From: a virus
Taxonomy: Duplodnaviria > Heunggongvirae > Uroviricota > Caudoviricetes
DNA length: 34,744 nucleotides
Reading direction: 5' to 3' (one strand)
Virus record (IMG/VR): IMGVR_UViG_2574180160_000007
This document shows positions 1,594 through 2,050 of this stretch, in pieces (position 1 is the stretch's first letter; each line of letters starts with the position of its first letter). The notes under the pieces are model-generated. The model was not told the origin of the DNA. It did not search any database and saw only the letters and a list, made by a program, of their open reading frames with translations. A program made the translations under genes and the position numbers.

Positions 1594-1617
1594 TTCCCTT
1601 TATACCATGTCCTTATT

Positions 1618-1647
1618 GACCCCGTATATTACGGGGTCGTTTTTGTG
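1618..1647 (+). terminator. Rho-independent terminator after yciE
   Basis: Hairpin GACCCCGTA-TATT-ACGGGGTC followed by GTTTTTG, about 25 nt after the yciE stop. Confidence 0.7.
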
Positions 1648-1652
1648 CGGAA

Positions 1653-1769
1653 TTAAAAACGATATCCTGCTGAGAACATAAACACCCACGGATCGAGGCG
1701 TACGCTATCGTGTTGCTGTGCACCGCCCAGCTTATAATTGGCGGTGGTATCGATATCCATGTACCACAC
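1653..1769 (-). pseudogene. ompW: ompW 3'-terminal fragment (about 38 codons) at the prophage/chromosome junction (attR side)
   Basis: Minus-strand translation ...VWYMDIDTTANYKLGGAQQHDSVRLDPWVFMFSAGYRF* matches the OmpW C-terminus as I recall it; the frame is closed by a stop immediately upstream of this block, so only the gene end is present. Confidence 0.6.
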
Positions 1770-2050
1770 TGGTAGGTTTCAAAAAACACAATAACCAATT
1801 GTATTTGAAGCAAAAAATAAGACTTTGAGATGTTTTTTTGTACCTTTTTTTTATGCTTTTAACTGTCTGATTTTATTGAAATCTTTTTTAGTTTTGCAGA
1901 AGGAATTTTTTACTTGATTGTAACTTTTTCGTTTTTTTGGGGCTAATTGACGCGCAATGCTGGGCGGGGAGCACACAGCCAAAAAAACCGAAATTGACCG
2001 CTAATTACTGCCAATCATCATCGCTCTGATTGAGCGTAAATCATTCAGGT
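1770..2050. other. AT-rich prophage end / putative att arm region (no ORF)
   Basis: About 280 bp of AT-rich non-coding DNA with homopolymer T/A runs between the ompW fragment and the first phage ORFs. Confidence 0.35.

Follow-up and report, generated by a model that had tools for sequence, protein, structure and literature searches.

Near its left end, the window (the whole 34,744-nucleotide stretch of IMG/VR virus record IMGVR_UViG_2574180160_000007) passes from the chromosomal gene yciE through a short piece of ompW into AT-rich DNA. Does this piece mark a site-specific integration, at which base does the phage DNA begin, and what became of OmpW in the lysogen? Our analysis leaves little doubt that positions 1651–1905 are the attR junction of a ~51-kb lambda-like prophage belonging to the published PPompW family. 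The label attR is used according to the lambda convention, for the prophage end distal to int.

The chromosomal side of the junction is readily recognized. The gene yciE (1087–1593, plus strand) is a 168-aa ORF with RefSeq-annotated counterparts at the corresponding position in strains EC24, PD007, and 600029; it belongs to the chromosomal flank and is convergent with ompW. The left part of the window also contains yciG (279–455) and, between yciG and yciE, yciF. The end of an IS1 element occupies positions 1–237, its terminal inverted repeat (...AAGTTGGCAGCATCACC) stopping at 237. This IS1 sits between trpA and yciG; it is also annotated in strain 600029 and is absent from the K-12-like and EC24 genomes. 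In the yciE/ompW intergenic region, a consensus scan identified a terminator-like hairpin (1617–1639, plus strand; TGACCCCGTATATTACGGGGTCG followed by TTTTTG) with a 10-pair stem, including 6 GC pairs, and a T-run. The hairpin is unchanged in the uninterrupted yciE-ompW locus and lies 13 bases from the ompW stop codon.

The initial annotation had proposed that only the last 38 or so codons of ompW are present, on the minus strand, and that they abut the yciE terminator and are followed by AT-rich phage DNA. Both proposals hold. When the K-12-like ompW was compared with the whole window by blastn, the sole significant match was nucleotides 521–639 of the gene, at positions 1653–1771, with 119 of 119 identical bases (E = 2e-58), and no other part of ompW was found. 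This remnant consists, on the minus strand, of the stop codon (1653–1655), 38 codons (1656–1769), and two further bases; RefSeq labels the equivalent stretch in related genomes as an OmpW pseudogene lacking its N-terminus. We considered whether it could be a phage-borne copy of the ompW end. This was rejected, the remnant being fully identical to K-12-type ompW over its 119 bases and contiguous with yciE. Because the phage-borne copy described below is identical at only 95 of 121 positions, the remnant is the chromosomal copy, and it forms the B' side of attR.

Identity to the uninterrupted yciE-ompW locus ends exactly at 1771, and genomes with an intact ompW match a 1701-base query at its positions 1–772 only. 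The GC content falls at the same place, from 0.42 over 1087–1771 to 0.28 over 1772–1960, for 0.54 in the window as a whole. The prophage boundary is thus set to the base, phage DNA starting at position 1772.

As the initial annotation had anticipated, the integrase gene and the other junction lie outside the window: a tblastn search detected neither int nor xis in it. The closest genome, E. coli strain 600029 (NZ_CM128582.1), was therefore used in place of the far end; it is near-identical to the source of the window, at 99.75–100% over window positions 1–34465, with 31 mismatches in the first 21 kb, and it has no match to positions 34466–34744. The two share the layout IS1-yciG-yciF-yciE-ompW'-prophage. 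In strain 600029, int, xis, and attL are found ~17 kb past the point corresponding to the window end. The far end of this prophage carries exo, an 82-aa excisionase of the Exc family (PF07825, E = 1.3e-7) whose ORF overlaps the start of int, and a 376-aa integrase with an Arm-DNA-bind_1 domain (PF09003, E = 7.1e-22) and a Phage_integrase catalytic domain (PF00589, E = 1.3e-16). Directly beside int stands a full-length, 639-bp ompW annotated as intact. It is accompanied by the duplicated 3' segment (95/121 identical), so that the arrangement named as incompatible with integration, a full-length ompW with no 3' duplication, is not the one present in the closest genome.

We aligned the four sites, taking attR from the window, attL from strain 600029, attB from a K-12-like genome, and attP from Escherichia phage 204576 (CP025907.1). 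This is the comparison with an uninterrupted ompW and with the other prophage end that had been suggested for defining the att core. The four-way alignment, together with a run-length analysis, gave a fully identical common core of 28 bp, CAGTGTGGTACATGGATATCGATACCAC in the sense of ompW, at positions 1744–1771 (minus strand), which occurs once in the window. The sequence of attL is chromosomal up to the end of this block and of phage type after it, and that of attR is of phage type up to its start and chromosomal after it; the crossover therefore took place inside the 28 bp. That all four sites align around one core agrees with the proposed integration into the 3' end of ompW. Downstream of the core, the chromosomal and phage-borne ompW 3' ends also agree without a mismatch over two stretches of 23 and 20 bp close to the stop codon. 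The core lies within the 121-bp att duplication defined for PPompW prophages, the chromosomal (attR) copy of which spans 1651–1771 on the minus strand; the phage-borne attL copy is identical to it at 95 of 121 positions.

The attP sequence came from a candidate that we assembled by joining the phage arm of the window to the int-side arm of strain 600029 through the block that they share. In a search of a phage collection, this candidate proved contiguous in CP025907.1 over 628 bp (100% coverage, 98.9% identity), where it lies between the tail-fibre region and the genes int, xis, and exo. The existence of a free phage record with this attP provides indirect support for integration and excision through the site.

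Could ompW instead have been truncated non-specifically, for example by a deletion, by a rearrangement that an IS mediated, or by inter-prophage recombination? The IS1 at 1–237 is 1.4 kb from the junction, and inversions between prophages located at ompW and ydfJ have been described (Nakamura et al. 2021, PLoS Pathog, PMC8112680). However, the breakpoint falls at the same base in 1284 genomes and coincides with the edge of the core common to attB, attP, and attL. In addition, the closest genome has the missing 5' part of ompW precisely at the opposite end of the prophage, and no IS end is present at the junction. Such an origin is extremely improbable, and we retain integrase-mediated insertion.

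The P arm of attP, now at attR, extends from 1772 to ~1905 (minus strand) as an AT-rich stretch (GC 0.28) that, in CP025907.1, runs on without interruption into the core and the P' arm. It can be aligned with the attR arm of the O145:H28 PPompW up to ~1905, that is over ~135 bp, beyond which the sequences are unrelated, and other lysogens match the window up to positions 1899–1911. These alignment limits were therefore taken as the functional limit of attP on the P-arm side. An Rfam scan of the whole window gave no match in 1600–2100, so no RNA element accounts for the AT-rich stretch. A promoter scan of 1400–2700 was uninformative, with 3 sites for 2.4 expected.

Within the P arm, we identified a candidate arm-type integrase-binding motif, TCTGCAAAAC, at 1891–1900 (minus strand), ~120 bp from the core. 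It has a single exact copy in the window, and no second arm-type site was found in the P arm at up to two mismatches. In the reconstructed attP, (C/T)TCTGCAAAAC is present four times, once in P and three times, in tandem, in P'. The three P' copies directly follow the stop codon of the phage-borne ompW, and a perfect hairpin of 12 bp separates them from the end of int. The counterpart of the P-arm motif in the O145 PPompW is CTGCAAAAC, and the motif is retained in every variant inspected. In their layout, these repeats are similar to the arm-type sites of lambda attP, and they may be bound by the integrase. The same arm contains a weak IHF-like site, AATCAGACAGTTA (1860–1872, minus strand), with one mismatch to WATCAANNNNTTR. 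The pattern scan returned two hits, both one-mismatch matches, for 0.68 expected from shuffled sequences; the O145 orthologue of the site, AATCAATCAGTTA, as read off the alignment, fits the full consensus. A role for IHF at 1860–1872 is suggestive only.

The hairpin of the P' side is a perfect 12-bp inverted repeat (AAAACTGGTCAT / ATGACCAGTTTT) with a 3-nt loop, located between the third arm-type repeat and the end of int (strain 600029 attL locus, 14016–14042). It is placed to serve as a putative terminator for both the rebuilt ompW and int. A variant arrangement of this phage end was encountered in Escherichia albertii NBRC 107761 (NZ_BBMY01000048.1; extracted locus 3480–3800), where the P' arm and the phage-borne ompW 3' end are joined to rlmC and not to ompW. 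The integrase of this strain is the same but for one amino acid, and the overlap between the rlmC and phage homologies, ~10 nt, falls at the left edge of the core. Either integration at a secondary site or a rearrangement may explain this junction; the rlmC-type junction was found in no complete E. coli genome.

According to the scheme that these sites support, recombination between attP and the 3' end of ompW was carried out by the lambda-type tyrosine integrase of the phage, with strand exchange within the 28 bp common to phage and chromosome (window 1744–1771). The original last 38 codons of ompW were left beside the yciE terminator, joined to the AT-rich P arm. At attL, the 5' 174 codons of ompW are fused to the diverged, phage-borne 3' end, followed by the three arm-type motifs, the hairpin, and int. 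With its 5' part fused to a phage-borne 3' end, ompW would still provide the cell with a full-length OmpW, carrying seven substitutions at positions 185–194.

The lambda att system is the obvious model. Like lambda, this phage has a tyrosine integrase combining a catalytic domain with an N-terminal arm-binding domain (PF09003), a gene for an Exc-family excisionase next to int, int itself beside one arm, a common core, AT-rich arms, and putative arm-type repeats on both arms, here one and three. Unlike that of lambda, the target is inside a protein-coding gene and not intergenic. The common core of lambda is 15 bp, whereas the identity block is here 28 bp and lies within 121 bp of partial homology. 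Also unlike lambda, the phage carries a substitute for the 3' end of the target gene. In this respect it resembles phage 21 and e14, which insert in the 3' end of icd and keep the gene intact by a slightly different, phage-borne substitute 3' end; both cases combine insertion within the 3' end of a host gene with a diverged replacement. The 3' region of int even shows 71% nucleotide identity to phage 21 int over 133 nt. The two systems differ in the target, ompW and not icd, and in the nature of the segment exchanged, which here encodes a predicted surface loop and not part of a cytoplasmic enzyme.

PPompWs were described as lambda-like prophages inserted in ompW, with a 121-bp sequence at attL and attR, in 44% of 767 complete genomes (Nakamura et al. 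2021). The search for them required an integrase >90% identical over >90% of its length. Strain 600029 has an integrase with 100% identity to intE of PPompW_132418 (LC567822.1), the reference used here in place of EC112648_1574, on which the paper relied; its identity thus exceeds this threshold. The other features of the family are also present. The gene ompW is split by the insertion, with the 121-bp att at the junction, homology to intact ompW ending at 1771. Compared with PPompW_132418, which has the same integration site, the 121-bp att is identical at 119 of 121 positions at attR (window 1651–1771 against the repeat_region 43883–44003 of LC567822.1) and at 121 of 121 at attL (strain 600029). 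The module order is lambda-like according to the near-identical genome and the annotation of LC567822.1, and the two elements share the succession int-xis-exo, and further on terminase, protease/capsid, split portal, tail, gpJ, and the tail-fibre end.

A subset of the family carries additional features in its distal region that are not needed for membership, namely an exchangeable effector locus and a 21-bp secondary attB, attB-in-PP_1, the latter reported in the PPompWs of 145 of 338 PPompW-bearing strains (PMC8112680). Unlike the EHEC and EPEC members of the family, the present element has no type III effector gene (espO, nleG, espM) between attR and the tail fibre, and the 21-bp sequence (GTCATGCAGTTAAAGTGGCGG) is absent from the window at up to three mismatches. 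It carries instead tail-fibre and tfa genes, tfa remnants, and a gene for a SAM-dependent methyltransferase next to attR.

The genes next to the junction agree with the view that the tail-fibre end of the prophage is located there. Reading inward from attR, we find a DUF4376-domain gene remnant (2001–2270, minus strand; a pseudogene in the RefSeq annotation of strain 600029 mapped to the window) and a truncated tail-fibre-assembly gene (2367–2636, minus strand), also annotated as a pseudogene. The latter retains only the C-terminal part, its Caudo_TAP match (Pfam, E = 6e-25) covering positions 75–130 of the 131 of the profile; the ORF 2082–2363 has no Pfam match. Next come a class I SAM-dependent methyltransferase gene (2693–3361, plus strand; Pfam Methyltransf_12/23/25 and RefSeq annotation), a complete tail-fibre-assembly gene, tfa (3416–4000, minus strand), and a gene for a 933-aa tail fibre (4000–6801, minus strand), the last two being ORFs annotated by RefSeq in the near-identical genome. 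Together, 3416–6801 represent the late-gene end of the prophage. Past the tail fibre follow a Lom-family gene, gpJ, and the tail, head, terminase, lysis, and late-regulation genes, so that the window reads as a lambda-like prophage from its right end. The methyltransferase gene is bracketed by a 197-nt direct repeat (2347–2543 and 3396–3592, 89% identity) consisting of tfa 3' ends, an arrangement suggestive of a cargo gene that entered when the tfa end was duplicated or underwent recombination.

The Rfam scan of the whole window gave three matches only. IS009 matches 3459–3657 (minus strand; 225 bits for a gathering score of 117), inside the 3' end of the tail-fibre-assembly gene, and the paralogous repeat 2347–2543 scores below threshold. 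The late-regulatory region contains a match to the sRNA STnc100 (33465–33654, minus strand, 132 bits) and a tRNA-Arg with anticodon TCT (34351–34427, minus strand), for which the Rfam match covers 34354–34427.

Is this prophage still mobile, or is the junction a fossil, the attR of a fixed and defective remnant that no longer takes part in recombination? The portal region consists of two ORFs on the minus strand (20034–21419 and 21416–22780) overlapping by 4 bases; RefSeq flags it as one frameshifted gene in strain 600029, and the second part is a pseudogene in the O145 PPompW record. This split may be the head-gene defect that was invoked for the missing packaging of PPompWs, all those examined appearing defective, with no packaged DNA detected (PMC8112680). 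A packaging defect does not, however, make an att site inactive. PPompWs still excise and circularise after mitomycin C, and their attP was confirmed by PCR and sequencing of the circles (PMC8112680). Moreover, int and xis are intact ORFs in the closest genome, a perfect 28-bp core and arm motifs are present at both junctions, and an intact attP is found in a near-identical element recorded separately as a phage. A fossil junction is therefore unlikely. The present copy may still excise, as related PPompWs do according to the PCR demonstration.

With only a 38-codon fragment of ompW in the window, devoid of a start and of a promoter, one might also think that the insertion knocks out the gene and makes the lysogen OmpW-negative. 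The attL side makes this very improbable. RefSeq annotates ompW as full-length (212 or 217 aa) and as continuing into the phage-borne 3' end, both in the closest genome and in all the other attL-bearing genomes that we inspected. Since the phage provides a replacement for the 3' end that it displaces, the gene escapes inactivation. This replacement (strain 600029 attL locus, 13860–13980) is the diverged copy, matching 95 of the 121 chromosomal nucleotides, and the resulting 212-aa chimeric translation is collinear with K-12 OmpW apart from seven residues: N185K, L188S, G190V, A191T, Q192T, Q193V, and H194K.

OmpW, the receptor for colicin S4, folds as a barrel of eight strands and has long loops on the extracellular side (PMC2993939). 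The protein matches the OmpW structures 2F1T, 2F1V, and 2MHL in the PDB. From the topology of the eight-stranded barrel and the position of the variable stretch, residues 185–194, between the last two strands and at the tip of the final beta-hairpin, are predicted to form extracellular loop L4. This assignment is supported by the OmpW homologues of other species, which differ in the same stretch. When the attL loci of strain 600029 and of other E. coli lysogens (L003 and L008–L012) were read, at least three phage-borne versions of the loop were distinguished, TTAKYKSGVTTVKDS, TTASYKSNGTPVKDA, and TTAKYKSDGRKLAKGSYSDN, the native one being TTANYKLGGAQQHDS; the TTAKYKSDGRKLAKGSYSDN version is five residues longer. 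The phage-borne ompW ends vary only in this predicted surface loop, the flanking strands being invariant, and in each case the annotation is that of an intact ompW. When one genome per species (185,579 species) was scanned with degenerate codons for AKYKSGVTTVKD, no native ompW allele was identified as donor of the phage-borne end: the single match, in E. albertii, is itself phage-linked.

The simplest reading of this variation is an ordinary one: the loops of ompW evolve faster than the rest of the gene, and the copies carried by the phages would differ there only since they were captured from different alleles. Alternatively, PPompW-type lysogeny would rewrite the surface loop of OmpW; should selection be acting on this diversity, the gene end linked to att would serve as a cassette for lysogenic conversion. 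We regard this second possibility as distinctly doubtful. A text search of the paper describing the family (PMC8112680) found no discussion of loop replacement.

The junction itself is an ordinary one, already described, and ompW is a catalogued, very frequently occupied lambdoid integration site whose att has been established by experiment. Among 5426 complete genomes, we found the attR junction in 1284 and the attL junction in 1715; the site is thus occupied in about a quarter to a third of complete E. coli genomes. Our additions are small: the boundary at the base level, the 28-bp block inside the published 121-bp att, a candidate arm-type motif, and a phage-specified OmpW loop. For annotation, the fragment of 38 ompW codons is best treated as a scar of attR and not as a degraded gene. 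Among these additions, only the variable, phage-specified loop has any potential for novelty. If lysogeny did convert the OmpW surface in this way, colicin S4, OmpW-dependent phages, or antibodies would recognize OmpW differently in that same quarter to third of E. coli genomes.
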